Shown: positions 2,598 through 55,642 of the stretch, piece by piece
How the letters are laid out: every line of letters begins with the position of its first letter
How positions within the stretch are numbered: the stretch's first letter is position 1
Assembly (NCBI GenBank): GCA_964457225.1
Contig: CAYWEM010000001.1
Span: 78,012 to 142,011 of the forward strand
Source: an uncultured Clostridia bacterium
GTDB lineage: Bacteria; Acidobacteriota; Aminicenantia; UBA2199
Direction: 5' to 3'
Length of the DNA: 64,000 nt
Translations under genes and position numbers: made by a program
Notes under the pieces: model-generated
Database searches by the model: none
Told to the model about the DNA's origin: nothing
The model's input: only the letters and a program-made list of their open reading frames with translations

Positions 2598-2612
2598 TTG
2601 AAAACTGTATCA

Positions 2613-5789: not shown

Positions 5790-5831
5790 TGTTTTTCGCC
5801 AAAACAGTTAAACCTGATTTCTTCATGAAAA

Positions 5832-6599
5832 TCAATCAGCCGTCTTTTTTGAGAAGAGGTCGAAGGGAAAAGCCTCTTTCAGTTTTTCCGGATCCATTAT
5901 CGGAGCAGGTTCCCCCCCCATTTCCAGGGCTTCGGCCAGGCTGGAAGCGGCCATGAAACCTGGTCTGCCGGTCCCCTCGTAATAATCCCGGTATTTGAAA
6001 ACGTTCTCGGTATGACCGGGAGCCAGGAGCAAGCGGGCCGGCACGCCGTAAGCTTCAGCGGCTATGATTCCATGCAGGGCGCTGGCCACGACCAGGTCAC
6101 AGCCGAGTATCGTTCCGATCACCTCCTGCACCGGAAGCAGTGGAGACAGTAGGTTCTCAACACCTGCAAACAGATCCAGGTCGTTGTAATTAGGCATGAT
6201 GACATGGTTTCTGCGGGTTTTGATTTTAAAGCTGTCCACTGGAATTAAATCGGCTAAAAGCAATCCCGGATCACCGAATACTTCAGGCCCCCTGACACCT
6301 CGTTTTTCCAGGAATTCCGCGCTCAGAGGCCCGCGGACACTGCGCACGTCCAGACTTGAAAAACTATGCCTTTCAGCCGCGATTTTCCCGTTGACGCCGC
6401 TACCCCAAACCGTGTCCCCGTCGCCGGCAAAATGAAGAATCGAGCCGACAGCCAGCAGTCTATTGCCGGCCTGCCAGGGCGGCAAAATGCCTTTTGAACG
6501 CAGCATGGCGGCCACAATAATTGGAGAAAGCTCATCGCCGAAATTACCTGGAGCTCCGGGCCGGCGGAAGTAGAACAAATTGTCTATTATTTCGGACAC
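5832..6599 (-). CDS. Polysaccharide pyruvyl transferase-like protein (CsaB/WcaK family)
   Basis: N-terminal GxxGNFGDELSPIIVAAML resembles the PS_pyruv_trans signature. The gene is embedded in a glycosyltransferase operon. It is shorter than typical family members. Confidence 0.45.
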   Translation of the reverse strand: MSEIIDNLFYFRRPGAPGNFGDELSPIIVAAMLRSKGILPPWQAGNRLLAVGSILHFAGDGDTVWGSGVNGKIAAERHSFSSLDVRSVRGPLSAEFLEKRGVRGPEVFGDPGLLLADLIPVDSFKIKTRRNHVIMPNYNDLDLFAGVENLLSPLLPVQEVIGTILGCDLVVASALHGIIAAEAYGVPARLLLAPGHTENVFKYRDYYEGTGRPGFMAASSLAEALEMGGEPAPIMDPEKLKEAFPFDLFSKKTAD

Positions 6600-6602
6600 G
6601 TT

Positions 6603-7667
6603 TTATTGCTTCTTTTCCAGTAACAATCTCAAGAACTCTTTTTCGATTATCATCGCGTTTTTTGCCCAACTCAATGACTCAGCCTGCTTCAAGGCACAAA
6701 GAGCCATTTCCTTTCTTTTTTCCGGGGCCAGCACTGCGGCCCGGCGCAGGCCCTCGGCCAGGGCCTCCGGGCTCTGTTCCCTGATCAGGAAGCCCGTTTT
6801 CCCTTCTTCAATCAGCTCCACGGCATCGCCGACAGCCGGAGCAATTACCGGCACCCCCATGGTCAGGGCCAGCATCATCGAGCCTGAGGTCAGGTTGCCC
6901 TCCGAGGCGAAAACGGCGAAATCCGCGGCCGCGAAGAGTTTCTGCACTTCAGCATCAGGAACGCGGCCGGGCAGGAACCTAACCTGGTCCTGGTTGCCTG
7001 AACCAGGCAAATTCAATTCCACTCCAGGATAAACCTGGCCAGCTATCAGGAGTTGCCAGGGGCCCCTATTGGCTCGGCACAATGAATGGGCCTGCAGGAT
7101 CAGATCAAGTCGCTTATGCTTCCGTATATCGCCGAAAACCAGGAAGACCCGATCTGTTTCCGCATACCCCAGCTCGGCCCTGGCGGCGCTTCTCGTTAAT
7201 GAACCAGGATAGACTCCGGCGTAGTTCCCGTGGGGAGTGACCAATACTTTTTCGGCCAGAGCCGGCCAACGGGCGCAGATTTTCTCCCGGCCATATTGCG
7301 AGTGAACGAAAGCCAGGTCACAAGACCGGGCCAATCTCTGCCTCAGAAAGTTCTCCACCCCGGGGTAAAGGCCTTCGTGATTTCGATAGTTGTGAATCGT
7401 CCAGGCCAATTTGCCGCCCAGAGACTGCAAGCCGAGCAAATCGTACAAAAACGATTTGGCCCGGGCCAGGGCCCTTTCCTCACTGTCCTCGTTCTTAAAC
7501 AGAGCATCTTCCCAGTGCAGGTGGAACAACAGCCTCTCGCTCCGGTTTTCAAGTATATCCAGGGCTTCTTCAATTTTCCCAGCCGATATTTTCCAGTTGC
7601 CGGGAAAAGCCCGGTACAATAGCCGTTGATAGGGATTACTGTAATGAGGATAGTAAATTAACTGCAA
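6603..7667 (-). CDS. GT4-family glycosyltransferase
   Basis: C-terminal half has the GT4 EGNLTSGSMMLALTMGVPVIAPAVGDAVELIEEGKTGFL motif region (E-x7-E-like). Tightly packed in the operon, 3-12 bp from its neighbours. Confidence 0.7.
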   Translation of the reverse strand: MQLIYYPHYSNPYQRLLYRAFPGNWKISAGKIEEALDILENRSERLLFHLHWEDALFKNEDSEERALARAKSFLYDLLGLQSLGGKLAWTIHNYRNHEGLYPGVENFLRQRLARSCDLAFVHSQYGREKICARWPALAEKVLVTPHGNYAGVYPGSLTRSAARAELGYAETDRVFLVFGDIRKHKRLDLILQAHSLCRANRGPWQLLIAGQVYPGVELNLPGSGNQDQVRFLPGRVPDAEVQKLFAAADFAVFASEGNLTSGSMMLALTMGVPVIAPAVGDAVELIEEGKTGFLIREQSPEALAEGLRRAAVLAPEKRKEMALCALKQAESLSWAKNAMIIEKEFLRLLLEKKQ

Positions 7668-7679
7668 GATTTCACTCTT

Positions 7680-9224
7680 TCAGGATTCAGGAAAATTGTA
7701 ATCCCGCCTGACCTGCTGATCTCGAAAATCCTTGAATTCATTGCCATACACCACTCCACCCCGGCCGTCGCGGTAAACCCCGCCCTGAGCGGCGAAACTG
7801 TTGACGTAATTACATTCCAGTTCCTTGTAACCGTATTCAATGATATTGGCCACGCCATCAACCGTTCCGACCCTGGTTCCGGGATATGCTTCCGGTAGTA
7901 ATAATGGATGGAAATTTCCCTGGAATACATTCCCGAAGAATGGTTTGTTATTTGGATCGGGTGAAAAGCAATTTGGATCATAACCTATGTTCCCCTCATA
8001 ATCCATGATAAAGAAATGTACTCCGGTATAAGTCAGTTTTCCTTGACAGGAAACATTTGACAGTAAATACCTGATCATTCCATCGTCCATGTACCGGGCA
8101 ATAAAAATTCTTTCATCATCAGTGTATTCTCCCGGGAAAACCCTGCCCTCATGCTTCCCCTGCAATCTCCTGACGAAAACCAAGAAGCCGGCACGCCGGA
8201 AGAATGCCACATCTTCTTCGAAATGGCTGAAATAAGGAGGGTAAGCCACGTAGACAACCGGAACCTCAAGGTTTTTACTGCGGAAAAAGAATAAATACTT
8301 CAGATGATCTTCCCTGGAAATCATTGCAGGATGAAACGAGCTGACCATACACAATCTTTGTTCGGCGGCCAATTTGGAACCAGCAGCTTCCCCGGCGGCT
8401 TTAGTGGCAATATTGCTGATCAGGCGGATTCTCCAATTCGGCTCTGATTCGCACATGGCCACTATCTCCGGGAAAAGCCGTCCCAGGGTGGGCTCTCCAT
8501 GTCCCAGGTACAACACCAGTTTCTGGTTACCAAAACAAGCCTTTAGATTGTCATGCCATTGCTTGATGGTGCCGAAGGTTTTATCGGAATGGCTGTGCAA
8601 TCCAATGTAATAGCAATAAGGGCATCTGAAGTTGCATTTTGCTTCACGGCCGTTGTACTGCCATTGAACTACAGTATATTGCCGGGTAATCATCCAGAAA
8701 AGTGAGCGGCAGATTATCTCGTAGCCTTCGGCGTTTGGATGTAACTCGTCCCTCAGCCCATCCTGAGGTTTTTTCAATTCTCTTTGCCACAGGGCGTTTA
8801 TATCGGCAATTTTAATCTTCTTTTGCCTGGAAATATCTCTGACTACATTGCTGTAGTGGTCAACTTCCCGGTTATAGGATGACCGGGTAAAATCATAGCT
8901 TGGCGAAACGGTATTGAGAATAACCCTACTGCCTCTTTTTTCGAAAGAATCAACCATGATTATCAGATTGTTCTTGTATTCGATTTCATCGACCCCCTTG
9001 CGCCAGTCATTCATACCGAAAGCAATAACTGCTATTTCAGGCTTTTCTGCCAGCAAGGGATCGATTCTTTTTAGCCCGTCTCTGCTAGTATCGCCTCGAA
9101 CTCCGGCATTGATTACTTCGAGTTTGACTTCCGGATACTCCCGGCGAAGTTTTTCCTCCATCAGGGGGGAGAATTCCTGGGTTATCGAATCGCCGAAAAA
9201 AACCAACTTGCAAGGGTTTTCCAT
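7680..9224 (-). CDS. SGNH/GDSL hydrolase domain fused to a radical SAM domain
   Basis: N-terminal domain has GDSL block I (LVFFGDSITQ), GxND (FGMNDW) and DxxH (DELHPNAEGY). The C-terminal domain has the CxxxCxxC radical-SAM motif (CNFRCPYC) plus a C-terminal Cys cluster. Start chosen at ATG 9224 (MENPCKL), 2 nt after the TAA of the upstream gene; the ORF-track N-terminal 65 aa overlap that gene. Confidence 0.65.
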   Translation of the reverse strand: MENPCKLVFFGDSITQEFSPLMEEKLRREYPEVKLEVINAGVRGDTSRDGLKRIDPLLAEKPEIAVIAFGMNDWRKGVDEIEYKNNLIIMVDSFEKRGSRVILNTVSPSYDFTRSSYNREVDHYSNVVRDISRQKKIKIADINALWQRELKKPQDGLRDELHPNAEGYEIICRSLFWMITRQYTVVQWQYNGREAKCNFRCPYCYYIGLHSHSDKTFGTIKQWHDNLKACFGNQKLVLYLGHGEPTLGRLFPEIVAMCESEPNWRIRLISNIATKAAGEAAGSKLAAEQRLCMVSSFHPAMISREDHLKYLFFFRSKNLEVPVVYVAYPPYFSHFEEDVAFFRRAGFLVFVRRLQGKHEGRVFPGEYTDDERIFIARYMDDGMIRYLLSNVSCQGKLTYTGVHFFIMDYEGNIGYDPNCFSPDPNNKPFFGNVFQGNFHPLLLPEAYPGTRVGTVDGVANIIEYGYKELECNYVNSFAAQGGVYRDGRGGVVYGNEFKDFRDQQVRRDYNFPES

Positions 9225-9225
9225 G

Positions 9226-10197
9226 TTATTCGCCCTTAACTGCCCGCTTAACTCTTGATTCGCGATGCTTTTTAACTTCCCTGGTGTATTCCAGCAGCAG
9301 GTTGAATTCATTGCCCCTGTTTTCCAGGCATGACAAAAAAGCGTATTCATCAAGGCAGCCACAAACATTTTTCTGACATACAACGGCATCTTTTTCCAGG
9401 ACGGGTAATTCATGGTCAAACAGGTTGCCCCGTATTTCCGGCAGGCAACCGACTTTCAGGTTGCCCATAGGGTCCATTTTATAGGCAACTGTGGGGAAAT
9501 AGCATTTCCCCCCCCTGATATTTCCTTTACCGGTCTTGATTTTAACGTCGATGTCCGGAATGAGTTCAGGATACATGAGATGACCGGCTTCGGTCTGGCA
9601 GACCATTTCATTTTCCGAGAGCACGTTGGCATTGACAAAAACACCGATTTCCTGGAATTTTTCTTCTACGGAGGGGAACAGGTCAAGCTGACCCGGGGCC
9701 AGCACAAAATTCACCATGCCAACGTTGACTCCGTTCTGTATTTTTTCTTTTACACTGGTGAAGAACCTGTCAAAAGTGATCTGGGTTGGATGAAATGAAA
9801 TGTTGACCGTTATTTTTTTCCAATCGATGTCGCTGATTTTTTTTGCGCTCCAGAAACCATTGGTGTCAACCCTGATGCATTTGACCTGCTCCATCCGGGA
9901 CAAGCCGGCAAGAAAAACAAGAAAATTATTGAAGTCAGCAAAAGGTTCGCCACCGGTTATTTTCAGCACCAGCATGCTTGGGCTGAAACGGCTCATGGCT
10001 TGGAGCCATTCCCGGGGACTGTGATTGGCAAAGGCATGTTGATGCTCTTGTCCCTTGAAGCGGCTTTTATCCTGACTGCGGTGGTAAACGGCATCAAAGC
10101 AGTATTCACACCGGTAATTGCATAGCTTGGTCATTTTCCAGCTCAGATAATAATTTCGCCCGCTTCCGGGACGCCAACTGCTTCTGCCGGGATCCAT
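9226..10197 (-). CDS. Radical SAM protein with a Cys-rich C-terminal (twitch/SPASM-like) region; paralogue of the rSAM domain of 7680-9224
   Basis: CNYRCEYC (CxxxCxxC). C-terminal C-x18-C ... C-x4-C-x-C-x8-C. Shares the ISFHP / VNFVLAP segments with the neighbouring fusion protein. True start may be the internal MTKLCNYRC (~10134). Confidence 0.65.
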   Translation of the reverse strand: MDPGRSSWRPGSGRNYYLSWKMTKLCNYRCEYCFDAVYHRSQDKSRFKGQEHQHAFANHSPREWLQAMSRFSPSMLVLKITGGEPFADFNNFLVFLAGLSRMEQVKCIRVDTNGFWSAKKISDIDWKKITVNISFHPTQITFDRFFTSVKEKIQNGVNVGMVNFVLAPGQLDLFPSVEEKFQEIGVFVNANVLSENEMVCQTEAGHLMYPELIPDIDVKIKTGKGNIRGGKCYFPTVAYKMDPMGNLKVGCLPEIRGNLFDHELPVLEKDAVVCQKNVCGCLDEYAFLSCLENRGNEFNLLLEYTREVKKHRESRVKRAVKGE

Positions 10198-10229
10198 GAT
10201 TCAGTTACTCCGCATAATTCACTCGTTTA

Positions 10230-11165
10230 TCAAGTTCTTATTTTTAAAAGCTTTCCAATTCCTTTTTCATGCCTTTCAGAGCTGACCAAATAAAGGAATG
10301 TGCCGTCATGAAACCCTTTGTAAGGATTCTGGACCAACAGTTTTCTTCTGTAGATGATTTTATCTGTACTGAACTTGGTCAAAGTAGCTGAAGAACGATC
10401 TATAACAAAAAGCTGACCCGAATTCTTGATAATGTCCGAAACAAACTGGAAAGAAGTTTCTGATATCGGAGGTTTTATCACTTTTTCCCAAGCCCCGGTT
10501 TTTGGATTAAGAGCAAACATTTTTCCACTTCTGAGAAGAAAATACAGGCAGTCGTCCATTTCCTTCAAAAAAACCATTTCATCTGGATCTTCGTCAAGAC
10601 AGGGTATTCTATGCTTGAATTCGAATTTTGGAGAAAAAACCCCCAGATAATGTGTTTTTTTATTGAACAACAATAGATTGCCCTGCCAAGAAAAGATTCT
10701 CGATATTTCGTGGCCGAACTGATCAAGGTCAACGGAAAACAACTGCAGACTTTTTCCTTCCGGGGAAAACTTCTGGATCCTCTTGTTGCCCCTTTCAAGC
10801 ACAAATAAAGTTCCCCCTAGCATAACTAAGGCGATGGGTTCATTTAAACAGCCTTGTTTTTCACCTTTACCTCCAAAAGATCTCACAAATTCAAGGTTCC
10901 GGTTGTAAACCAGAATTTCATGACTGTAGAGTGCCGGCAAGTAAATCATTTCATCCGGTCCCGACACCATGTCCAGGCAATACTTCAACCGTTTGTCCTC
11001 GATTTCCTTGACGATTTCAAAGGTATAGTCTCGTTTGAGCCGGCGGGTCCTTTCCAGCAGGCCTGTTTTTTGCTCAGGGCTGATGTTGATCACGTTTTGT
11101 ATTTCGTTGTTTTTTCTCTTTCCTTCAATTCCAGGATTGATTCCGGGCAGGCTGCCGCCGTTCAA
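10230..11165 (-). CDS. NHL-repeat beta-propeller protein (hypothetical)
   Basis: Classic NHL repeat FGGKGEKQGCLNEPIALVMLGGTLFVLERGNKRIQKFSPEGK. Gene and upstream spacer are markedly AT-richer than surrounding genes. The ORF-track start is TTG with no obvious RBS, so the start is uncertain. Confidence 0.5.
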   Translation of the reverse strand: MNGGSLPGINPGIEGKRKNNEIQNVINISPEQKTGLLERTRRLKRDYTFEIVKEIEDKRLKYCLDMVSGPDEMIYLPALYSHEILVYNRNLEFVRSFGGKGEKQGCLNEPIALVMLGGTLFVLERGNKRIQKFSPEGKSLQLFSVDLDQFGHEISRIFSWQGNLLLFNKKTHYLGVFSPKFEFKHRIPCLDEDPDEMVFLKEMDDCLYFLLRSGKMFALNPKTGAWEKVIKPPISETSFQFVSDIIKNSGQLFVIDRSSATLTKFSTDKIIYRRKLLVQNPYKGFHDGTFLYLVSSERHEKGIGKLLKIRT

Positions 11166-11368
11166 AAAAGATTGAGTGACAAAAAAAAATCATCTTTTTA
11201 ATAAAGCAATTATGATGCCATCGATATAGATTTGCAAGCCCGCAACCTTGCGTTCTTTCGGCATTCCTGTTGCAGGACCTGCCGTTATTTTGACACCCGT
11301 TAATCCAATAAGACTTGACGGTATAACCGCCAGAAGTGATTATCTTGTTGACCTGGCATCCTGGTTGA

Positions 11369-24696: not shown

Positions 24697-26538
24697 ATGG
24701 ATAAAAAGGAACTGCTGCTGATATCCGGACTTTTGCGCGACAAGAAGCTGAGGATCACCCGCAAATCGATCGCTGAAAAAACCGACTGCCTGGCCAGGGC
24801 CGGTGAGTTTTTCCCAGACGTTCAGCAGAAAGCATTGTTGATTCAACTGCTGCACAGCTATGAAACGACCAAAAAGAAAGTTGTGATCGTCATGGATGAA
24901 AACAGCTTGCCCGACAATCCCGCCGCGGCCAGGATAAACCTCGGGGTCCTGGCCGAAGACTGGGTGGGCATGTCCAATTCGATACTCGGCATCGTTCACC
25001 AGAACGCCCAGAACGTGCATTACGCCAAGGCCCTGACCATGGATTACCTGGAAACGGAAATAGGAGCCGTCATCCTCTCCTTCGTGATCAGCGACCCGGT
25101 CCGCCTGCACACCTTCCGCAACGAACGCCGGAAGATAATGGAAAAGATCCGGACGGCCTCTCAGGGCAGTACCACCAAGACCATGCTCCTGGAAGATGAA
25201 ACCATCAAGTTTGAAATCTACGACCGCACGGTCAGGCTGATCCGCAGAACCTACAAGGAGAACGACCTGGACGAGATAATCGGCGAAAAGGGTGAAGCAC
25301 TCAAGTTCTTTTCCTCGCGCTCCCGGGAATACCTGCAGGAAAGAAGAATCCGTGACCTGGCCACCATGATCGTCACCAATCATCGCTTCCAGAAAATGAT
25401 CAGGGAAGGCCGCTCCAAAAAAAAGATCAGGATCGACAATTTCACCACCAAGGACGAAAAGCTGACCGGGATTACATTCGCCTGCGCCAACAATCGTTTT
25501 TCCGTGGACAATTTCCTGAAAATACTCGATTTTATCGTTCCGGGCTATGTCATCAAGCATCACAAGAGTTTCGTTTCCCAGGACGACATCCTGGTTTACC
25601 GGATAGAAATCGTTGACCGTAACCACGAATGGCTGGATCCGAAAATAATCCGCTCGATCGCCATGGCCCTCGACAAGACCATTGACACGGCCTTTGACGC
25701 CAGTTTCACCCAGATCAAGAACATCGGGGGTTTTGAACACTTCGCCCGCGCCATAATCCCCTTTCTGATAAACGAAACCCGGAATACCCGCACCACCCAG
25801 GTTTTTTTCAGTGTCAGCAAAAAAACCCAATTCAACCTGGATCTCAAGATCATAGTGGTCACCCAACTCAAGGGCAAGGCCAGGACCGCCGCCCTGATCC
25901 GCAGGCTGGAAGACATTCCCGGAATAGATATCACCGCGATAGTTCCGCCCAGGGTTTACTCCAACAACGTTGAAATCAACGTATTCAACCTGAACGTACT
26001 CCTGTCCGAGTTTGCTTCGATCAACGCCATTTTCACCACCCTGCGTTCAGTCCTCAAGAGGTTTTTTGGAGAAATCAGGGATTTTGACGCCGGCATCAGA
26101 GAAGCCGACCTGCGGGTACTCCACGAGCTGTTGGAAGAATTCAAGGACAAAAACCCGGTGCTGATCCGCAAGATTTTCTACAAGCTCGACGAAATCTACC
26201 GCATCGAAACACCTTTGCAGGTCCTGCGCGAAATCATGGAACTGAGCCATGAAACGGTTACCCAAGCCGGTCAGGTCACCCAGCGACGTATCTTTTTCCG
26301 AAGTAAAAACGTGCCCCATCCGGCGGGAAAGGGATTTCTCAAAACCTTGCTGGTGGTTTCCTACCCAAGGGAAAACAACCTGCTGAAAAGAATAGCGGGC
26401 CACCTGGAAGGTATTGAAACCTATTTCAGCAAAATAGAATGGGACCAGAGAATACTGCTGATCCTGACCTTGAAAAAAAGCGGCCGGGCCCTGGAGCAGG
26501 GTGAAATCAACGCCATCACCTCCATGTTCAACGCCTGA
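24697..26538 (+). CDS. Hypothetical 613-aa protein containing about four ACT-like small-molecule-binding domains
   Basis: Repeated beta-alpha-beta-beta-alpha-beta style segments beginning LGVLAEDW.., ITFACANN.., LKIIVVTQL.., LLVVSYPR... No catalytic motif recognised. Confidence 0.35.
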   Translation: MDKKELLLISGLLRDKKLRITRKSIAEKTDCLARAGEFFPDVQQKALLIQLLHSYETTKKKVVIVMDENSLPDNPAAARINLGVLAEDWVGMSNSILGIVHQNAQNVHYAKALTMDYLETEIGAVILSFVISDPVRLHTFRNERRKIMEKIRTASQGSTTKTMLLEDETIKFEIYDRTVRLIRRTYKENDLDEIIGEKGEALKFFSSRSREYLQERRIRDLATMIVTNHRFQKMIREGRSKKKIRIDNFTTKDEKLTGITFACANNRFSVDNFLKILDFIVPGYVIKHHKSFVSQDDILVYRIEIVDRNHEWLDPKIIRSIAMALDKTIDTAFDASFTQIKNIGGFEHFARAIIPFLINETRNTRTTQVFFSVSKKTQFNLDLKIIVVTQLKGKARTAALIRRLEDIPGIDITAIVPPRVYSNNVEINVFNLNVLLSEFASINAIFTTLRSVLKRFFGEIRDFDAGIREADLRVLHELLEEFKDKNPVLIRKIFYKLDEIYRIETPLQVLREIMELSHETVTQAGQVTQRRIFFRSKNVPHPAGKGFLKTLLVVSYPRENNLLKRIAGHLEGIETYFSKIEWDQRILLILTLKKSGRALEQGEINAITSMFNA

Positions 26539-26615
26539 CGGCAGGCGGGACGCCATTTTCTTGACGGGGGTAAAGTTTTTTTTTGACAGGCCGATAAATT
26601 GATTGGCATATTAAG

Positions 26616-26840
26616 ATGAAAATAAACGAGATTGCTCTGCAGCAGGTGTTGCGAACTTACGGTTCATCCCTGCGACTGCCCGGCTGGCGTGAAAAATCAG
26701 GCCAGAACGCCGCAGGCAGAGAAAATCGCGAAGTGGAAGTACTGAAAAACATGGAAACCCACGATATAAATTACGACGTCAAGGCCCGCATTCAAAGGGA
26801 AGCAGACGGCTCCAGCAGAATCATCGACTTCCTCGATTGA
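26616..26840 (+). CDS. Small hypothetical protein (74 aa)
   Basis: Compact ORF between the ACT-domain gene and the sigma-54 promoter. No recognisable motif. Confidence 0.3.
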   Translation: MKINEIALQQVLRTYGSSLRLPGWREKSGQNAAGRENREVEVLKNMETHDINYDVKARIQREADGSSRIIDFLD

Positions 26841-26858
26841 TTGGCATCCAAATTGCTT
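26841..26858 (+). promoter_or_regulatory. Sigma-54 (-24/-12) promoter: TTGGCATccaaaTTGCT
   Basis: GG and GC elements are at the exact canonical spacing (TGGCAC-N5-TTGCW) with two mismatches. It lies 23 nt upstream of ATG 26881 of an operon that itself encodes a sigma-54 activator. Confidence 0.5.
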
Positions 26859-26880
26859 GCAGTGATTGGAGCTGAAAACG

Positions 26881-28029
26881 ATGAAAAAAGCTTTACTGCT
26901 CAGTGATGATCAGAATTTAGTTCCGGAATTGCGGGCGGCCCTGGGCCAGGCGCGGCTGGAAACGCGGCCGGCCGGTGATTACCGTAAAATCCCCGCCGGA
27001 CTGGACTTGCTTGTCTTTGACGCCGACCAGGCCCCCCGTACGCGTATACTATCCCTGGCCCGCTCCATGGCCGGCCGGCAGATTCCGCTGGTCTGCATCG
27101 CCGGGGACATCAGCGGCCCGGAAACTGCAGAGCTTCTGAACGGAGGAGTGGCCGCCGTTCTGTTCCGCGGGCAACCCGTAACGGCCTGGACCCGGGAAAT
27201 AGGCCGCCTGCGCGGTCTGCGGCGGCGGGCCCGCCTGATCCGGGCCTCCCTGGAAAATGACAACAAAACCCGCTTCCTGCTGGACAGTTTCACCAGGATG
27301 ACGGCGGACAAGCCGATCCAGGAAAACCTGAAGAGGATCGTCCAATCAATCCAGCAGACCTTTCCCCGCTTTGCGGTTTTTCTCTTCCTGGTCTCCAGGG
27401 GTAAAATCAGCGCCCGCCTGCAATCCGGTCCAGATTCCACCGGCCTGGCCGAGGCTGAATGGTCCCTGGCCGAGCCTCCGGCCTGGCTGAAAACGATGAC
27501 CAGGAACCGGAAAATCACCAGGATCACGATGGCCGGCGAGGGGAAATCTTTTCCCCTGAACAGCCATCTTTGCCCCTTGTTCATGAAGGAGCAGTTCGCC
27601 GGTTTTCTGGCCCTGGCAGCCGAGCCTGGAGACGGATCCTCCCCCCTCTCCCGCCACGACCGGCTTCTGCTGGTCGGCTTCGCCGAATTCGCCGCCCTGA
27701 CCCTGGAAAACGGCAAATTGCTGAACGATGTACTGCGCACCCGGGAAAAACTGATCAGGCAGGAAAAAAAGAACCTGCTGGCCCAGATGGTGGTAAGTCT
27801 TAACCACGAGATCAACAATCCGCTCAGCATCATTTCAATGGAAACCCAATTACTTGAGCGCGACCTGAACGGCAGCCGGGACCGGCTTTCTTCCCGGCTC
27901 AACAACATAAACAACAGTGTCCAGCGTATCCAGAGATTGTTGGAAAAAATAACTTCACTGCAGGTTGAGAACTACGAAACCATAGCTTACACCTCGCGCA
28001 AGGCCATGCTCAAGCTTCATGAAAACTGA
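26881..28029 (+). CDS. Signalling protein: receiver-like domain + GAF-like domain + HisKA (DHp) domain, no HATPase_c domain
   Basis: N-terminus LLLSDDQN...LDLLVFDAD (receiver acidic pocket). C-terminal H-box VVSLNHEINNPLSII. The protein ends ~30 aa later without N/G1/G2 boxes. The ORF-track TTG start is at 26866; the ATG is at 26881. Confidence 0.55.
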   Translation: MKKALLLSDDQNLVPELRAALGQARLETRPAGDYRKIPAGLDLLVFDADQAPRTRILSLARSMAGRQIPLVCIAGDISGPETAELLNGGVAAVLFRGQPVTAWTREIGRLRGLRRRARLIRASLENDNKTRFLLDSFTRMTADKPIQENLKRIVQSIQQTFPRFAVFLFLVSRGKISARLQSGPDSTGLAEAEWSLAEPPAWLKTMTRNRKITRITMAGEGKSFPLNSHLCPLFMKEQFAGFLALAAEPGDGSSPLSRHDRLLLVGFAEFAALTLENGKLLNDVLRTREKLIRQEKKNLLAQMVVSLNHEINNPLSIISMETQLLERDLNGSRDRLSSRLNNINNSVQRIQRLLEKITSLQVENYETIAYTSRKAMLKLHEN

Positions 28030-29914
28030 GCCGCGAGTATTCCTGTTTCTTTTTTTTCTCTTTTTCAGCCTGGTTTCAGGATCCGTGCCCAGGCAGGAAA
28101 TCACCGCCCTGTTCGACTCGGGGGAATACGAAAAACTGGTGGAAAGGGCCCTGCGTCTGCAGGCCGGGCCGGCGGCCGCGCTTTCACCCGGAGACCGCGC
28201 CTTTCTCAATCATCACCTTGGCCTGGCCTACCAGGCCCTGGGCAAACGGGAAATGGCCTGGCAATATTTCAAGGCCAATGCCGATTCATTTGCGGAATTA
28301 CAGGAGAGCCTGCCGTCCCTGCTGGCCCTGGCCGAACTCCATCTCCAGGAACCCCTGATCCGGGAAGCTTACCTGGAAAGAATAGTCGGCGGATTCCCCG
28401 GCACTCCGGAAGCCGGGCGGGCGGCGGCTGAACTGGTCGCCTACCACCTCAGGCAGGGCAACCTGAGCAAGGCCCTGGAAATCATCCAGGCTCCGGCCAG
28501 GCAATGGCCCCATTCCGAGATGACCCCGCAGCTCCACATGCTGGCGGCCATGGCCTATGCTGAAAGCCGTGATTTCATTGAAGCCCACGATTTCCTGCGC
28601 CTGGCCGAAAGAGCCATGCCGGAAAGCATCCGGAAAAACGCCCAATACCTGTTTTACGCCGGGAAAATCAAGTACAACAACCAGGACTTCAAGACTGCGG
28701 CAGAATACCTTCAGGTTCTGCAGAACGTTTTTCCGGTGCATGAAAACTTTTTCGAAGCCGCCCTGATCCTGGCCGACTCACTGGAACGGGAAAACAAGAC
28801 CAAGCTGGCCGCGGCCTTTCTGATCCAGGCCCTGGACCGGAATCCGCCCCAGTCATTTCTCTATCCGAACATGCTGCGGCTCGGCCGCATGATCGATCGT
28901 TTCAACCAGGCCGATTACCAGGAATTCGCCGCCCGTTACCCACTTTTCGCAGACACCAGACGCCTGTTTGAAATAGTGGCCAGGAATTCCCCGGTTTACG
29001 AGCAGAGGCGCGAAGCGACAATCCTGCTGACCCTGAACCTGAAAAGGAACAATTTCATCAAGGAAGCCATCAAGGTGTACCGTGATTTCATGAAAAACCG
29101 GCCTGACCCCATGCTGGAAAAGTATTTCCGGGAAACGGTCGACTTGTTTCTCAACACCCTGGCGGCTGAAGGAGAATGGGCGCAAATACTGCGCTTCTGG
29201 CTGGAAACCAAGGAAACCAAGAGCATTTTTTCCTCGGCCAATCTCAATGCCCTGGGCGACGCCCTGGTCAAAACCAACATGTGGAAAAACGCCCTGGAAG
29301 TATTCAACTTCATGCTGCGTTACAATCTTTACGCGGAGCACTGGGATAACGCCCGCAGGCAAAAAGCCCGCATCAGCTTCAACCTGGGGCTTTTCGAGGA
29401 CTGCCTGGCCGACCTGGAAAAAACCGGTCCCCTGTCGGATTACGAACAGAGCGAATTCCAATACTACCGGGTGGTCTGCCTGCAAAGAACCGGACGGCCG
29501 GAAGAAGCCGAAAAGACAATCATGGGCCTGGACCTGTCCGAACCCGGCAATCCCTTCCAGGCTCGACTGCTGATCATGAAAGCGGAAAAACTGATGAGCC
29601 GCGGGGAGCGTGACCGGGCCCTTGAGACGGCGCAAATCCTGCTGGCGGAAAAGAATCTCGAGGACGCCGTTCTGGCCAGGGCGCTTTCCCTGGCGGCGGA
29701 AGTTCATTTCCTGCGCCGGGAATGGCCGGAAAGCATAAAGATACTGGATGAACTGGAAAAAAGAGAGCTCAACCTGGACTGGGTGCTGTATCGGCGGGCA
29801 TCGGTTCAGCAACGCTCCGGGCTGAGTTCTGAGGCCAGGGCAACCGCGGCCCGGCTGGCCGAGCTCTTTCCTGATTCCTTCTGGCTGAAGCAGTGGCGGT
29901 CCGATGAGCGCTGA
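28019..29914 (+). CDS. Secreted TPR-repeat protein
   Basis: Signal peptide MKTEPRVFLFLFFLFFSLVSG, followed by many TPR-like repeats. Overlaps both neighbours by 11 bp, so it is translationally coupled. Confidence 0.6.
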   Translation: MKTEPRVFLFLFFLFFSLVSGSVPRQEITALFDSGEYEKLVERALRLQAGPAAALSPGDRAFLNHHLGLAYQALGKREMAWQYFKANADSFAELQESLPSLLALAELHLQEPLIREAYLERIVGGFPGTPEAGRAAAELVAYHLRQGNLSKALEIIQAPARQWPHSEMTPQLHMLAAMAYAESRDFIEAHDFLRLAERAMPESIRKNAQYLFYAGKIKYNNQDFKTAAEYLQVLQNVFPVHENFFEAALILADSLERENKTKLAAAFLIQALDRNPPQSFLYPNMLRLGRMIDRFNQADYQEFAARYPLFADTRRLFEIVARNSPVYEQRREATILLTLNLKRNNFIKEAIKVYRDFMKNRPDPMLEKYFRETVDLFLNTLAAEGEWAQILRFWLETKETKSIFSSANLNALGDALVKTNMWKNALEVFNFMLRYNLYAEHWDNARRQKARISFNLGLFEDCLADLEKTGPLSDYEQSEFQYYRVVCLQRTGRPEEAEKTIMGLDLSEPGNPFQARLLIMKAEKLMSRGERDRALETAQILLAEKNLEDAVLARALSLAAEVHFLRREWPESIKILDELEKRELNLDWVLYRRASVQQRSGLSSEARATAARLAELFPDSFWLKQWRSDER

Positions 29915-31028
29915 AAACGAACTCTCTCTGGTAAAGAAAGCCTTCGAAGAGTTCATCCTGACATCCAAGAATCTTGAACAGGCCTATGATACGCTCAAAG
30001 ACGAAGCAAACCGGCTGGCCGTTTACCTGGCCAACGTCATTGAAAACGTCGGTTCGGCCCTGCTGGTTTTCAATGACTCCGGCCGGCTGGTAATGTGGAA
30101 CCGCCTGGCTGAAAACATCATGCCGGTTTTGCAGGGGCAGAAAGCGCCCTTGAAACTGGCCGACCTGCCTGCCCCCCTGCCCTTTGACCTGGATGAAATA
30201 CTGACCCAGGAGCGTCGCTTTCACGAATACAGCCAGGGGAGCAACGGTAATCAGCGCTGGTTCGAGCTGGTCCGTTCCGATTTCAAGGACAGCCGCGGCC
30301 GCCAGCTCGGCACCATCGTCACCATCACCGACAAGACCGACCTGAAGACCCTGCAGATCAAGAGCCAGAGAGAAGACCGCCTGCGCATCATGGGTGAATT
30401 CGCCGCGGAAGTGGCCCACGAGATCCGCAACCCTCTGGCTTCAATCGAACTGATGCTGCAGATGCTGGCCGACGACCTGGGAGAAGATCTTTCCGCCGTG
30501 AATTTGATCGGCCGCATCAGGTCGGCCACCGGCACCATCAATCACATCGTCAGCAACATCCTGCTCTACACCAAGCACATCCAGCCGGAAAAAACCAGGG
30601 TTGACCTGGGAAAATGCCTGCACCAGGCGGAAAACACCGCCATCAACCTGATCATCAGGAAGTCGGTAGAAATAGAGTACCGGCTGGCTGAAAAAAACGT
30701 AAGCGCTGATTTTGAACTGCTGGCCCAATGCCTGGCCAACCTGATCCTAAACGCGGCCCAGGCCGTTGCCGACCGGGAAGGCAGGATCGTGGTCAGTTCC
30801 TCTCCGGCTCCTGACGGTCGGATAAAAGTCTCGGTGGCCGACAACGGTCCCGGGATTCCCGAGGAAATCAGGGACAAGGTTTTCCTGCCCTTCTTCACCA
30901 CCAGGAATTCAGGAACCGGGTTGGGCCTGGCCATGGTCAAGCGGGTGATCGAGGCCCACGACGGCGCCATAGAATTGAACTCAATTCCGGGCGGCACTGT
31001 TTTTTCCCTGTTTTTTCCCTTAGAATAA
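29904..31028 (+). CDS. Cytoplasmic sensor histidine kinase (PAS-like + HisKA + HATPase_c)
   Basis: H-box EFAAEVAHEIRNPLASI. N-box LILNAAQA. G1 VADNGPGIP. G2 GTGLGLAMV. Confidence 0.8.
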   Translation: MSAENELSLVKKAFEEFILTSKNLEQAYDTLKDEANRLAVYLANVIENVGSALLVFNDSGRLVMWNRLAENIMPVLQGQKAPLKLADLPAPLPFDLDEILTQERRFHEYSQGSNGNQRWFELVRSDFKDSRGRQLGTIVTITDKTDLKTLQIKSQREDRLRIMGEFAAEVAHEIRNPLASIELMLQMLADDLGEDLSAVNLIGRIRSATGTINHIVSNILLYTKHIQPEKTRVDLGKCLHQAENTAINLIIRKSVEIEYRLAEKNVSADFELLAQCLANLILNAAQAVADREGRIVVSSSPAPDGRIKVSVADNGPGIPEEIRDKVFLPFFTTRNSGTGLGLAMVKRVIEAHDGAIELNSIPGGTVFSLFFPLE

Positions 31029-31032
31029 GGAC

Positions 31033-32334
31033 ATGCATTTACCCGACATACTGGTAGTCGACGACGATGAAAACCTCAATTACGCCATCGGCGAAACCCT
31101 GAAACGCAAGGACTACCTGGTCGATCAGGCCTATTCCCTGAGTGAAGCCCGGGAAAAGATTAACCAAAGGGCTTATCCGATGGTGATAACCGATGTCCGC
31201 ATGCCCGGGGGCAGCGGTATCAGCCTGGTGTCCGAGATCAAGAAGCGTTACCCGGCCAGCGCGGTGATAGTCATCACCGCCTACGGCAAGGTCGAGGATG
31301 CCGTGACCGCCCTGAAGCACGGGGCTGAAGACTACATCCTGAAACCTTTCCCGGCTGAAAACATCCTGGGCCTGGTTGAAAAGTTCTTCCCGGCTCATTT
31401 TCTACCGGCCGCCGGCCCGGATTTCCTGACCGCCGACCCGGCCATGAACGCCTTGCTGGAAAAAGCGCGCCGGGTGGCGCCGAGCAACGCCGCCGTTCTG
31501 ATCAGCGGTGAAAGCGGCGCCGGCAAGGAAGTGCTGGCCCGCTACATTCACAACGGCAGCCGGCGGCGGGAAAACGCCTTCCTGGCCATGAACTGCGCGG
31601 CCATCCCGGAAAACCTGCTGGAGAGTGAATTGTTCGGTTACGAAAAGGGCGCCTTTACCGGGGCCGACAAGTTCAAACCGGGCAAGTTCGAACTGGCCGA
31701 CGGCGGCACCCTGGTGCTGGACGAAATCGGAGACATGCCCCTGCACCTGCAGGCCAAGATACTCCGGGTCATCCAGGAAAAAGAGATCGACCGCCTGGGC
31801 GGGCGCAAGCCGCAGCCGGTCGATGTCCGGCTGGTTTCCCTGACCAACCAGGACATTCCGGCCAGGATCATGGAAAAATCGTTTCGCGAGGACCTGTATT
31901 TCAGGCTGAACGTGGTTGAATTACTGATCCCGCCCCTGCGGGAAAGACCGGCCGACATCAGTCTGCTGGCCGGTCGATTCTGCCAACTCTATGGATTGGA
32001 AACGAAAAGGCCCGGGCTGAAGCTGGCCCCCGACGCCGAGCGAAAACTCCAGGATCATTCCTGGCCGGGCAATGTCCGCGAATTGCAGAATACGATCCAG
32101 AGAGCGGTTATATTCAGCAACGGCGACAGTATCGGCGCCGCTGACATTGAGTTCCGGGCCGCCTCCCCCGGCGCCGTTAAAACCGGGCTGATGACCGTGG
32201 CTGAAATGGAAAAAGACCTCATCCTGCAAACCCTGGAAAAGGTGAACAACCGCACCCGGGCCGCCGAGGTACTGGGCATATCGCCGCGCACCCTGCGCAA
32301 CAAGCTCAGGGAATACAACCTGTCCGAAGAATAG
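31033..32334 (+). CDS. Sigma-54-dependent response regulator (NtrC family): receiver + AAA+ sigma-54 activation domain + Fis-type HTH
   Basis: Receiver ILVVDDDENL..VITDVRMPGGSG. Walker A GESGAGKEV. GAFTGA motif. C-terminal HTH AAEVLGISPRTLRNKLREY. TAG stop. Confidence 0.85.
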   Translation: MHLPDILVVDDDENLNYAIGETLKRKDYLVDQAYSLSEAREKINQRAYPMVITDVRMPGGSGISLVSEIKKRYPASAVIVITAYGKVEDAVTALKHGAEDYILKPFPAENILGLVEKFFPAHFLPAAGPDFLTADPAMNALLEKARRVAPSNAAVLISGESGAGKEVLARYIHNGSRRRENAFLAMNCAAIPENLLESELFGYEKGAFTGADKFKPGKFELADGGTLVLDEIGDMPLHLQAKILRVIQEKEIDRLGGRKPQPVDVRLVSLTNQDIPARIMEKSFREDLYFRLNVVELLIPPLRERPADISLLAGRFCQLYGLETKRPGLKLAPDAERKLQDHSWPGNVRELQNTIQRAVIFSNGDSIGAADIEFRAASPGAVKTGLMTVAEMEKDLILQTLEKVNNRTRAAEVLGISPRTLRNKLREYNLSEE

Positions 32335-32416
32335 CCGCTCCCCCGCCGCTAAAATCCACCACCTAATTTCTGCAATTGTTCTGAAGAGCAATATAAGGGT
32401 TGAGTTTTACCTGAGT

Positions 32417-32594
32417 GAAAGGGTGAATCAACGCTCACCACTACGGTGCAGACCGACGTTAAGCCAGGCTGTACTAACATGACCAACTCGCTTCGCTCAG
32501 ACAGTGGTCATGTTACCCTGAAGGGCACGTCCAGCCTGGCTTTGTCGGTTCCCTGCACCTTCGTTTGACGTTCGCTTTTGCTTCACCCTTTCCC
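32417..32594 (-). repeat. Copy A1 of the ~177-nt structured palindromic element (inverted relative to copies A3/A4)
   Basis: Reverse complement is 99% identical to 48783-48959. Lies intergenic between ntrC-like and hslV. Confidence 0.85.
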
Positions 32595-32673
32595 TTGCCC
32601 CATATTTTTTGGTGGGGAATCATGGGCCGGACGTTCATTTGACTAGCCCGGGCAAAAGGAATAAAATCAAGCC

Positions 32674-45428: not shown

Positions 45429-45567
45429 ATCAGCAATTTTACCGCCGGCCAGGGCCCAGATTCCCGTTTCCGGCATTAAGACCGGTGGCCAACCGGTTCA
45501 GCTCTGCCGGATAAGGTTTTTTTCAAGTCTCGGCCATCACCCTGGTTCCATACCTGTTTTTATGCCA

Positions 45568-45698
45568 GGGGAAGGGTGAAGCAAAAGCGAACGCTCCCCC
45601 TTCGGGGACAAGAAACGAAGGTGCAGGGAACCGACAAAGATGGGCTGGACGTGCCCATCAGGGTAACATGACCACTGTCTGAGCGAAGCGAGTTGGTC
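45568..45698 (+). repeat. Copy A2: left arm + loop of the palindromic element only, truncated at the junction with repeat B2
   Basis: Matches positions 1-~125 of copy A3, with the small hairpin ctcccccttcggggacaag replacing tcaa. Ends ...agttggtca, then repeat B begins. Confidence 0.8.
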
Positions 45699-45704
45699 AA
45701 GGGG

Positions 45705-48711: not shown

Positions 48712-48782
48712 ATTCTTTCCTTCCGGGCAAGTCAATATGCACCACGGCACCTCTGATTCCCCGTTTAAATCTTTGAAAAAGG

Positions 48783-48959
48783 GAAAGGGTGAAGCAAAAG
48801 CGAACGTCAAACGAAGGTGCAGGGAACCGACAAAGCCAGGCTGGACGTGCCCTTCAGGGTAACATGACCACTGTCTGAGCGAAGCGAGTTGGTCATGTTA
48901 GTACAGCCTGGCTTTACGTCGGTCTGCACCGTAGTGGTGAGCGTTGATTCACCCTTTCC
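48783..48959 (+). repeat. Copy A3 of the ~177-nt structured palindromic element (reference copy)
   Basis: Terminal inverted repeats gaaagggtgaa / ttcaccctttc. Internal complementary segments aacatgacca/tggtcatgtt, agccaggct/agcctggct, ggtgcag/ctgcacc, accgac/gtcggt. Confidence 0.85.
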
Positions 48960-49123
48960 TTCAGGTAATACACACACCCAATAATGCTCTTAATAACAAT
49001 TACAGAAATCAGCTAGGGAATCCTGACGGCGGCGGGCCGTCTTGACAAGGTAGTTATTTCTATAATATAGAATTAAAGTAATCGTTTAAGTCACCTTAAC
49101 CGAAATCCATCCGGAGGTGTGTC

Positions 49124-52710: not shown

Positions 52711-52947
52711 TGTCCCTCATCGGCAAATGTCGGCCGCGCCGCTTTGCTTTCTGATTTCAATTGATGATAAATCAATGAAAAATACAAGTCAACAAGTTCA
52801 TGTTATTTTTTCAATCATCCGTGAAGTTGTTGACCGTCAATGCCTATAATAAAAGACAGTATGTTTTTTCTATCCAGTTTATATCGTTTTACTCCGCTTG
52901 ACATAGTGAATATCGTTTTGTATAAAAACCAGTATCAAGGAGGGATA

Positions 52948-55201: not shown

Positions 55202-55302
55202 GCAACCTCCCCGGTCCGGCCGACGCCGGGACCGGCCTTACAATTAGCACGGCGACCTCCCCCTGTCAACCGCGGGCCTGATCATATCTGATCATTGGGC
55301 CA

Positions 55303-55479
55303 GGGAAAGGGTGAAGTAAAAGCGAACGGAAACGAAGGTGCAGGGAACCGACAAAGCCGGGCTGGACGTGCCCTTCAGGGTAACATGACCACTGTCTGAG
55401 CGCAGCGAGTTGGTCATGTTAGTACAGCCTGGCTTTACGTCGGTCTGCACCGTTGTGGTGAGCGTTGATTCACCCTTTC
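55303..55479 (+). repeat. Copy A4 of the ~177-nt structured palindromic element
   Basis: 97% identical to A3 (5 substitutions). Lies intergenic between the divergent galM and GH97 genes. Confidence 0.85.
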
Positions 55480-55642
55480 ACACTCAGGAAAGACAATAAT
55501 CTTAGCAGTGTATTTCAAACAATTCCGGCAATCAGGTAGTGTGTTTGGGGGGTCACCGGCACTGGACAGCGGGATCTTCCCTGTTATATCATTGCACCTG
55601 CCGATGAAAACCGAAATCAAGCGATTCCCGCGGAGAATAACC

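Follow-up and report, generated by a model that had tools for sequence, protein, structure and literature searches.

A kinase-less receiver-GAF-DHp protein encoded in a conserved signalling cassette with predicted sigma-28-type and sigma-54 promoters

Introduction

Two-component signalling is usually read as the work of a kinase and a regulator. Censuses also list 'incomplete kinases' that consist of the dimerisation and histidine phosphotransfer (DHp) domain only, few of which have been assigned a role. A locus that raises this question directly is present in a 64-kb stretch of contig CAYWEM010000001.1 from an uncultured Aminicenantes-type bacterium (below, the window is this whole stretch, as analysed). 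Here five genes run in one direction, in the order small open reading frame (ORF), G1, G2, G3 and G4. G1 encodes a protein with a receiver-like (REC) domain, a GAF domain and a DHp domain that stops before any catalytic ATP-binding (CA) domain; G2 encodes an exported tetratricopeptide repeat (TPR) protein, G3 a soluble histidine kinase and G4 an NtrC-family sigma-54 activator. What, then, is the role of a DHp protein devoid of an ATPase domain that is encoded beside a complete kinase and its activator? We found that G1 belongs to a sharply defined family, and that the region from 26554 to 32334 is best read as one self-contained signalling cassette with two stacked promoters.

Results

G1 ends after its DHp domain

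In Pfam searches, G1 matched HisKA (residues 301-358, E 6.6e-09) and GAF_3 (149-277) and nothing else; neither Response_reg nor HATPase_c was detected. The AlphaFold model of G1, built on 30 homologues (pLDDT 79), displays a (beta-alpha)5 receiver fold of five strand-helix units at residues 1-124 (pLDDT 83-91), a GAF domain at residues 146-247 and a DHp hairpin at residues 258-359, the latter made up of a first, very long helix (258-327) and a second one that turns back (333-359). The tail that follows (360-382) is conserved, and the last 20 residues are disordered in the model. The best matches in the PDB, identified with Foldseek (E ~1e-10), were the REC-GAF-DHp fragments 6oap, 6ob8 and 6oaq of a dual-sensor histidine kinase. 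The H-box histidine, His309, is encoded by nucleotides (nt) 27805-27807, and as only 73 residues remain after it, there is no room for a catalytic domain. Taking into account the absence of an HATPase match and the short C-terminus, features that are likewise found in the homologues, G1 is not a kinase.

We identified 35 homologues of G1 with 28-48% identity, all of them metagenomic. Most are ~385 residues in length and align end to end with G1, and the rest are shorter or partial. SLNHEINNPLSIISME is invariant among the homologues, as is the H-box SLNHEINNPL. The earlier note on this DNA had described the first protein as a receiver-like, GAF and DHp protein with a genuine H-box and no catalytic domain. 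This description proved correct, and the conservation of the architecture in the 35 homologues indicates that it is not the result of truncation.

The receiver-like nature of the N-terminus was borne out with a reservation. The fold is present together with D9, D10 and D47, but the domain is atypical in that, besides escaping the Response_reg profile, it has Ala74 at the position of the conserved Thr/Ser and Arg96 at that of the conserved Lys (equivalences to CheY T87 and K109 assigned by eye from the alignment and the model). In most relatives the Thr/Ser position is occupied by Phe (Phe or Ala across the family) and the Lys position by Lys. In one subclade (P0028, P0031 and P0032; loci L007, L009 and L010) the acceptor Asp is replaced by Glu, which speaks against a transfer through Asp being obligatory throughout the family. 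Either a phosphorelay or a phosphatase role for G1 would be a reasonable proposal.

A sigma-54 promoter element precedes G1

G1 begins at ATG 26881 and not at TTG 26866; the ATG has a GGAG ribosome-binding site 7 nt upstream, and all homologues start at an equivalent Met. Between the small ORF and this start codon lies TGGCATCCAAATTGCT, which reads TGGCAT-N5-TTGCT with its GG and GC doublets exactly 10 nt apart. It starts one base past the stop codon of the small ORF and is situated 24 nt before the ATG, with the ribosome-binding site in between. TGGCAY-N5-TTGCW occurs twice in the window, against 0.18 occurrences expected.

Comparison with related loci provided further grounds for assigning a promoter. 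In the loci harbouring the same cassette (type 1), TGG[CT]A[CTG]-N5-TTGC[AT] was found at the homologous place in 11 of the 12 distinct loci, ~20-40 nt (up to ~65) ahead of the first gene, and the twelfth (L014) has a relaxed form, TGGAAT-N5-TTGCA, that retains GG-N10-GC. L054 and L055 likewise have the element. In most related loci the motif is positioned 1-2 nt past the stop codon of the upstream small gene, exceptions including L004 and L014. When all 816 kb of the fetched loci were considered, the stringent motif occurred 24 times, and 19 of these occurrences were at the homologous cassette position. The position of the element is thus constant across loci whose proteins are only ~30% identical. 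The sigma-54 promoter predicted by the earlier note is well supported by this comparative evidence.

The only other strict match in the window is TGGCATCATAATTGCT at 11205-11220 on the minus strand. It is located upstream of minus-strand genes spanning 1002-11165, which comprise an ORF for a propeller-like protein of 311 residues, two radical-SAM genes, a gene for a GDSL esterase and a polysaccharide cluster in which glycosyltransferase and pyruvyl-transferase genes follow one another. G4, the NtrC-type activator, may act on TGGCATCATAATTGCT as a second target.

A sigma-28-type promoter and a small gene extend the unit upstream

Ahead of the small ORF we found TAAAGTTT-N11-GCCGATAA, which is the exact textbook consensus of enterobacteria for sigma-28 (FliA/SigD) and nearly that for Bacillus SigD. 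It is the only strict sigma-28 match in the window, where 0.06 would be expected. T[AC]AAG..-N11-nCCGA[TA]AT was present in 12 of the 12 type-1 loci and in L017 and L022, two loci with a sister cassette described below. A T-rich box, TTTTGAC(A/G), is found ~5-8 nt ahead of the sigma-28-type -35 element, at the same relative place in each of the 12 type-1 loci and also in the sister cassette; in several of these loci (L007, L009, L010, L011, L013, L014 and L022) it is duplicated or inverted. It is a candidate site for a regulator or enhancer protein. Both promoters are constant in position and sequence, which is not the case for the flanking intergenic DNA. As no terminator-like site was found between the small gene and G1, transcripts from the sigma-28-type promoter probably run on into G1-G4. 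The cassette is thus preceded by two predicted promoters, a sigma-28-type promoter ahead of the small gene and a sigma-54 promoter ahead of G1-G4. A sigma-70 reading of the upstream promoter (TTGACA-18-CATATT) was rejected, as the transcript would start inside or at the start codon and the arrangement is not conserved in relatives. A second TTGGCAT is found at 26603-26609, between the sigma-28-type -10 element and the start codon of the small ORF; TTGC is not present at the -12 spacing, and the sequence is probably there by chance.

The small gene precedes G1 in every locus. Its product has 77 homologues of 56-100 residues (nearly all 72-83), none of which bears a name or a Pfam domain. When 12 members were searched against Pfam, no match was obtained at E values up to 10, and sequence and profile searches of the PDB also gave no match, including FlgM. 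Pairwise differences at the three codon positions were 0.35/0.10/0.60, and since the conserved blocks differ mostly at third positions, the ORF is a real coding gene. A conserved helix (MKxDExTLQxILKxYGK) at the N-terminus of the protein is joined by a charged linker of variable sequence to a conserved motif, INYDxxG...LIDFFQ, at the C-terminus. In its AlphaFold model, a helix was predicted at residues 5-19, while the rest is of low confidence and mostly disordered. We considered whether the protein is a FlgM, but this identification received no support from Pfam or the PDB, and the model is too disordered for a fold search. The likeness is a loose one, limited to small size, disorder and a sigma-28 promoter.

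The features of the cassette are listed in Table 1. G1 and G2 overlap by 11 nt, as do G2 and G3, and G3 and G4 are separated by 4 nt. Four coupled genes behind a sigma-54 element had been proposed in the earlier note, and these distances agree with that proposal. The unit does not begin at 26841 as had been assumed, because the sigma-28-type promoter and the conserved small gene also belong to it.

Table 1. Genes and predicted promoter elements of the cassette (positions in the window)
Feature	Position	Strand	Length	Basis or remark
T-rich TTGAC(A/G) box	26554-26566	+		conserved position, ~5-8 nt upstream of the sigma-28-type -35
Sigma-28 (FliA/SigD)-type promoter, TAAAGTTT-N11-GCCGATAA	26571-26597	+		consensus match, conservation
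Small ORF, protein gene of an undescribed family	26616-26840	+	74 residues	conserved before G1, coding pattern
Sigma-54 -24/-12 element, TGGCATCCAAATTGCT	26842-26857	+		GG 26843-26844, GC 26855-26856
G1, receiver-like, GAF and DHp, no CA domain	26881-28029	+	382 residues	
G2, exported TPR-repeat protein	28019-29914	+	631 residues	
G3, soluble histidine kinase	29904-31028	+	374 residues	
G4, NtrC-family sigma-54 activator	31033-32334	+	433 residues	

The TPR protein, the kinase and the activator

G2 has TPR repeats recognized by Pfam after a signal-peptide-like N-terminus (residues 1-22), and its export is predicted from sequence. The signal-peptide-like N-terminus is kept in all TPR orthologues, and the TPR gene follows G1 in all loci, including those of the sister cassette. 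A secreted TPR protein had at first appeared to be an oddity in an operon of this kind. On the contrary, it is the most constant partner of G1, maintained even in the diverged sister cassette.

G3 has an N-terminal coiled coil and no transmembrane segment, and all of its orthologues among the kinases of related loci are soluble (38-49% identical). HisKA (1.3e-13) and HATPase_c (3.5e-24) were both detected, with His172 and the N (279), G1 (313), F (327) and G2 (337) boxes. The previous assignment as a PAS-containing histidine kinase therefore stands for the kinase, which is complete, but the PAS signal is weak (PAS_4, E 0.012).

G4 is a canonical NtrC-type sigma-54 activator, as had been proposed. 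Response_reg (1e-26), Sigma54_activat (1e-68) and HTH_8 (1e-14) were detected, and the residues expected in an AAA+ activator with a receiver domain were found at D54, Walker A (159), GAFTGA (206) and Walker B (228), followed by a Fis-type helix-turn-helix. G4 reached no named NCBIfam equivalog cutoff; the best matches were FlbD, AtoC and PrsR.

Distribution and gene order of the type-1 cassette

A genome scan with the single G1 sequence gave no matches, and the family was located with an alignment-based scan. Its members are found in metagenome-assembled genomes labelled Candidatus Aminicenantes, Acidobacteria and Omnitrophota, and under the automatic label 'uncultured Clostridia'. The order small ORF-G1-TPR-soluble kinase was observed in all 12 distinct loci as far as these were fetched (L008 ends inside the TPR gene), and was the same in two further long contigs. 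As the outer neighbours differ every time, the cassette is an autonomous module. In L006, L007, L009, L010 and L011, an NtrC-type gene with 57-66% identity to G4 directly follows the kinase gene. The constant core is the small protein, the kinase-less protein and the TPR protein.

A profile search with the G1 alignment was also carried out against a whole library of 1.84 billion representatives. The resulting list was swamped by giant multi-GAF proteins, and full-length relatives of G1 fell into only ~16 clusters at 50% identity, so that the REC-GAF-DHp form is restricted to particular lineages.

A sister cassette and a wider family of kinase-less DHp proteins

In the Aminicenantes loci L015-L017, L021 and L022, a G1-like protein followed by a TPR protein forms a sister cassette. 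The G1-like protein is again REC-GAF-DHp (363-384 residues, 22-24% identity to G1) with the H-box SLNHEINNPL. Upstream of the pair are a small ORF of ~79 residues, a sigma-28-type motif, the TTGAC box and a TGGCAC-N5-TTG[CAG] element. In L017 (4603-8386), for example, the order is a 131-residue HATPase_c_2 protein, the TTGAC box, the sigma-28-type motif, a 79-residue ORF, TGGCAC-N5-TTG[CAG], REC-GAF-DHp and TPR. No full kinase or activator is encoded adjacent to the sister cassette. A stand-alone 131-residue HATPase_c_2 (RsbW-like) protein, recognized with an E value of 2e-21, is encoded just upstream in L015, L016, L017 and L021, and no such gene was found within the flank examined in L022. 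The shared design indicates that the combination of a small protein, a kinase-less DHp protein and an exported TPR protein behind stacked sigma-28 and sigma-54 promoters predates the split of the two cassettes.

SLNHEINN ORFs were also found in Cloacimonadota, Latescibacterota, Zixibacteria, Gemmatimonadota, Bdellovibrionaceae, Margulisiibacteriota, Auribacterota and Chthonomonadia. Among 38 complete ORFs from these other phyla, 36 end 67-96 residues past the His, and the other two, which have a catalytic domain, have GI[GA]HEINNP instead; this sample is biased, as the scan was seeded with the SLNHEINN motif itself. Most members of the wider family are GAF-DHp proteins of 260-300 residues with a shared, conserved tail, [DE]Y[IL]xGxxM[IL]xL, after the second DHp helix. 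A separate profile search also revealed shorter relatives (P0113-P0141), which are stand-alone DHp proteins of 82-220 residues or DHp-receiver fusions of 166-226 residues, with no ATPase domain in the precomputed Pfam annotation.

In 14 loci from Cloacimonadota and Latescibacterota, the family gene is located 3-4 kb downstream of a gene for a FliA-type sigma factor with regions 2, 3 and 4. Flagella have been reported in only few Cloacimonadota genomes (bioRxiv 10.1101/2021.10.08.463351), so the link of the family is to the sigma factor and not necessarily to flagella. Several individual arrangements were noted. In L018-L045 (Cloacimonadota and Latescibacterota), there is a conserved cluster of a fliA-type sigma gene, a gene for a 524-residue exported protein, one for a 340-residue protein and a GAF-DHp gene (for example, L025 4431-8771). 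In L033 (4725-10111), a GAF-DHp gene is situated between fliA-fliK-flhB' and a sigma-54 motif (8476) that precedes flgF-flgG. In L028 (5578-7778) from Cloacimonadota, a gene for a 279-residue GAF-DHp protein overlaps by one base with one for a 453-residue NtrC-type activator, with no adjacent kinase; this is the simplest pairing of the kinase-less DHp family with an activator.

Discussion

A tentative model and the points that weigh on it

The best explanation at present, which we hold tentatively and at slightly less than an even chance, is that the G3 kinase acts on the G4 activator, that G4 acts on the internal sigma-54 promoter, and that G1 is a regulated phosphatase or phosphate sink. The sigma-28-type promoter would yield the disordered small protein, with read-through into the genes behind it, and the sigma-54 promoter after the stop codon of the small gene would drive G1-G2-G3-G4. 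G3 is the only complete kinase of the cassette and would thus be its only protein able to take phosphate from ATP. It would phosphorylate the G4 receiver, and G4 would then open sigma-54 promoters including the internal one of the cassette, resulting in positive feedback. G1, presumed unable to autophosphorylate, would form a DHp dimer presenting its invariant H-box. In HisKA domains, Thr or Asn four residues after the His is needed for phosphatase activity, while the acidic residue at +1 is tied to kinase chemistry (bioRxiv 10.64898/2026.02.27.708494). H-E-I-N-N in G1 fits the E/D-x-x-T/N phosphatase motif. A precedent is RedE of Myxococcus, a non-autophosphorylating kinase-like protein that takes phosphate from a receiver and dephosphorylates an output regulator (PMC2755868), and by analogy G1 would most likely draw phosphate off the G4 receiver, either as a regulated phosphatase or as a phosphate sink. 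Control of this activity would fall to the GAF domain of G1 and to its atypical receiver, on which G3 may act. The exported TPR protein, produced in stoichiometric amounts with the others, would serve as a partner in the envelope or as an output, and the sigma-28 input would couple the module to a FliA-type regulon, as in the wider family in other phyla. A direct link between kinase-less DHp proteins and receivers or activators is suggested by the pair of GAF-DHp protein and NtrC-type activator in L028 and by DHp-REC fusions devoid of an ATPase. The sigma-28/sigma-54 theme is suggested by the FliA-type sigma gene in the 14 loci and by the flagellar context of L033.

Several observations weigh against this model. 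The direction of phosphate flow is something we infer from sequence, and the invariance of the His would fit phosphotransfer at least as well as a phosphatase role. By our own reading of the sequences, the residues below the His on which partner specificity usually depends differ between G1 and G3, and the two proteins need not dock the same receiver. The model does not account for the role of the exported TPR protein, which is the most faithful partner of G1 and is expected to reside across the membrane from it. Concerning autoregulation, which was part of the original proposal, an activator gene is adjacent to the kinase here and in 5 other loci, but this is not the case in L001, L004, L013, L014, L054 and L055. 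Every locus keeps the sigma-54 promoter, yet roughly half have no activator gene next to the cassette, and autoregulation by a neighbouring activator therefore cannot be the general design. The earlier note had proposed a check for an NtrC-binding enhancer upstream of 26841; no convincing inverted repeat was found in 26380-26900. No rpoN, fliA or flagellar gene is present within the window, nor is there a gene for a FliA-type sigma factor in the flanks of the type-1 loci, and both sigma factors are presumed for the host genome.

Alternative explanations

If G1 instead passes phosphate on, the cassette would constitute a phosphorelay, as the earlier note had considered possible, with four steps from the G3 His to G1 Asp47, G1 His309 and G4 Asp54, with G1 combining the functions of Spo0F and Spo0B. 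In favour of a relay are the retention of D9/D10 and D47 in a receiver fold that is modelled with confidence, the absolute invariance of His309 and its surroundings, and the fact that G1 and the kinase are always encoded together, and transfer from RedD to RedE illustrates that movement of phosphate from a receiver to a DHp His is possible (PMC2755868). We nevertheless consider a relay unlikely, as the subclade with Glu in place of Asp (L007, L009 and L010) keeps the whole cassette including the activator, the conserved Thr is Phe or Ala across the family, the Lys is Arg in the protein of the window, and GAF-DHp and DHp-only relatives exist that have no receiver at all. The His of G1 might also be phosphorylated in trans by the CA domain of G3, or by the 131-residue HATPase_c_2 protein in the sister cassette, making G1 the actual phosphodonor in a split kinase. 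The sister cassette, with this protein encoded upstream of the small and G1-like genes in place of a full kinase, and the acidic residue after the His of G1, which is needed for kinase chemistry, raise this possibility, but G3 has a complete DHp domain of its own and has no need of G1. HATPase_c_2 proteins of ~131 residues are usually anti-sigma Ser kinases of the RsbW/SpoIIAB type. Together with L022, where no RsbW-like gene was seen in the flank, and with Cloacimonadota relatives that have no adjoining ATPase gene, this makes a split kinase distinctly improbable.

Another mechanism involves no passage of phosphate through G1. RetS reportedly modulates GacS as a dimerisation partner, and the DHp domain of G1 could similarly heterodimerise with, or bind to, that of G3 and switch the kinase. 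G1 and G3 are always co-encoded and are translationally linked through G2, both have a HisKA-type DHp domain, and the tail [DE]Y[IL]xGxxM[IL]xL, disordered in the monomer model, resembles a docking peptide. Yet binding alone would leave unexplained why S-L-N-H-E-I-N-N-P-L is absolutely constant over nine or more phylum-level labels, and relatives exist that have no kinase gene adjacent to them; we see only a slim chance for this mechanism. Finally, G1 could be a truncated or decayed kinase and the -24/-12 element a chance match. Sequence shuffling gave at least two sigma-54 matches in 2 of 100 cases, but the 35 homologues at 28-48% identity (most of the same ~385-residue length, end to end), the uniform end point in 36 of 38 H-box ORFs and the 19 of 24 stringent sigma-54 matches at the homologous position leave an artefact with almost no credibility. 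Among these explanations, the preferred one remains that in which G1 acts as a phosphatase or phosphate sink.

Comparison with known systems

The RedCDEF 'four-component' system of Myxococcus xanthus (PMC2755868) likewise combines an ordinary kinase and a non-autophosphorylating kinase-like phosphatase in one cluster. Its receiver is a separate protein, RedD, whereas that of G1 is fused, and the system has no GAF domain, TPR protein, sigma-54 activator or dual promoter and bears no sequence relation to the cassette beyond shared domains. RedE presumably has both transmitter domains by Pfam, while G1 has no ATPase domain. The dual-sensor kinase of the 6oap, 6ob8 and 6oaq structures has REC, GAF and DHp in the same order as G1, followed by a CA domain, and its REC and GAF domains jointly control the DHp domain; sequence identity to G1 is 13-15%, and G1 ends after the DHp domain. 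We take the native kinase to contain, in addition to its catalytic domain, a GAF domain that binds bilin. Spo0B and ChpT are dimers with a DHp-like four-helix bundle and a phospho-accepting His that shuttle phosphate between receivers and do not autophosphorylate with ATP. They retain an ATPase-like domain in degenerate form and contain no sensor domains, whereas the DHp domain of G1 is fused to a receiver and a GAF domain and matches the HisKA profile and not that of Spo0B.

With regard to gene content, PrsK, PrsR and PrsT of the PEP-CTERM/exosortase system are likewise a histidine kinase, a sigma-54-dependent regulator of the NtrC type and a large TPR protein that is exported. Of the named models, PrsR comes closest to G4 relative to its cutoff, and a glycosyltransferase cluster is present 10 kb from the cassette in the window. 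However, the cutoffs of TIGR02916, TIGR02915 and TIGR02917 were all missed (384 bits against 503 for G4, 81 against 300 for G3, and no TIGR02917 match for G2), G3 is a soluble protein only half as large as PrsK, and the Prs system does not include a kinase-less DHp protein. Exosortase or PEP-CTERM genes were not seen. FlgS/FlgR, FlrB/FlrC and FlbD likewise represent soluble kinases and NtrC-type activators, in hierarchies that use both sigma-54 and sigma-28. FlbD, FlgR and FlgS were among the better NCBIfam matches, far below the respective cutoffs (396 against 750; 118 against 600). These flagellar regulators operate with no kinase-less DHp protein, although relatives of G1 occur in a flagellar cluster in L033. 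A flagellar identity for the kinase and activator was rejected, as neither the window nor the surroundings of any type-1 cassette contain flagellar genes. Our literature search found nothing on motility in Aminicenantes.

Sigma-54 and sigma-28 promoters, HisKA kinases, NtrC-type activators, TPR repeats and, as a census category, 'incomplete' kinases are all of known kinds. In the literature we found no account of this family of kinase-less DHp proteins, of its constant partners, of the stacked promoters for two sigma factors or of the recurrent link to FliA-type sigma factors. What delimits the family sharply is the H-box, which does not vary, together with the conserved tail and the constant end point. 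Its fixed partners comprise, besides the exported TPR protein, a disordered small protein and either a kinase or a stand-alone ATPase. The two-promoter design unites alternative sigma factors that are best known from flagellar hierarchies, and the link to a FliA-type sigma factor recurs in other phyla, including lineages reported to have no flagella. A broader proposal, and one that we regard as speculative and rather improbable, is that SLNHEINNPL proteins are multi-phylum phospho-histidine modules that couple a FliA-type regulon to sigma-54 activators, providing a checkpoint at which the late sigma factor would turn the sigma-54 tier off or on, with the 74-residue protein as a functional analogue of FlgM, itself a small and disordered regulator of sigma-28, and the TPR protein as the envelope structure that is monitored. 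If a phosphatase or relay role holds, the family would represent a reusable module through which sigma-28 and sigma-54 regulons communicate, and would give first access to regulation in the uncultured Aminicenantes and Cloacimonadota. Should the role not be confirmed, the locus would still be a clean example of a conserved, lineage-specific extension of two-component signalling.

Other features of the window

Directly upstream of the cassette is a 613-residue ORF (24697-26538, plus strand) that gave no Pfam or NCBIfam match. It is conserved at an equivalent place in L006 and L008, where identity is 45-47%, and a relative with 27% identity is encoded near the kinase-less DHp gene in the Gemmatimonadota locus L050. 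In L054 (17134-20240), 2.6 kb downstream of the cassette, a small ORF is accompanied by a gene for a DUF5128-type six-bladed propeller and two radical-SAM genes. This copy is not preceded by a sigma-54 motif. Similar genes are present in the window, with DUF5128 at 52840-54033 and a propeller-like ORF and two radical-SAM genes at 7680-11165. The propeller and radical-SAM genes may form a peptide-modification cluster.

We also observed a dispersed repeat of ~200 nt in the window, with four intergenic copies of 83-97% identity at 32395-32600 (plus strand), 48779-48979 (minus), 55297-55494 (minus) and 45564-45699 (minus, partial). The first copy lies between G4 and hslV. A single long, imperfectly paired hairpin is formed by the repeat (-87.8 kcal/mol, z -6.8). 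A structured RNA or terminator specific to the operon was considered for the hairpin after G4 and rejected, as it has no match in Rfam and is a dispersed repeat. The repeat looks like a miniature inverted-repeat transposable element (MITE) or a repetitive extragenic palindromic (REP)-like element, and its first copy may function as a terminator of the operon as well.

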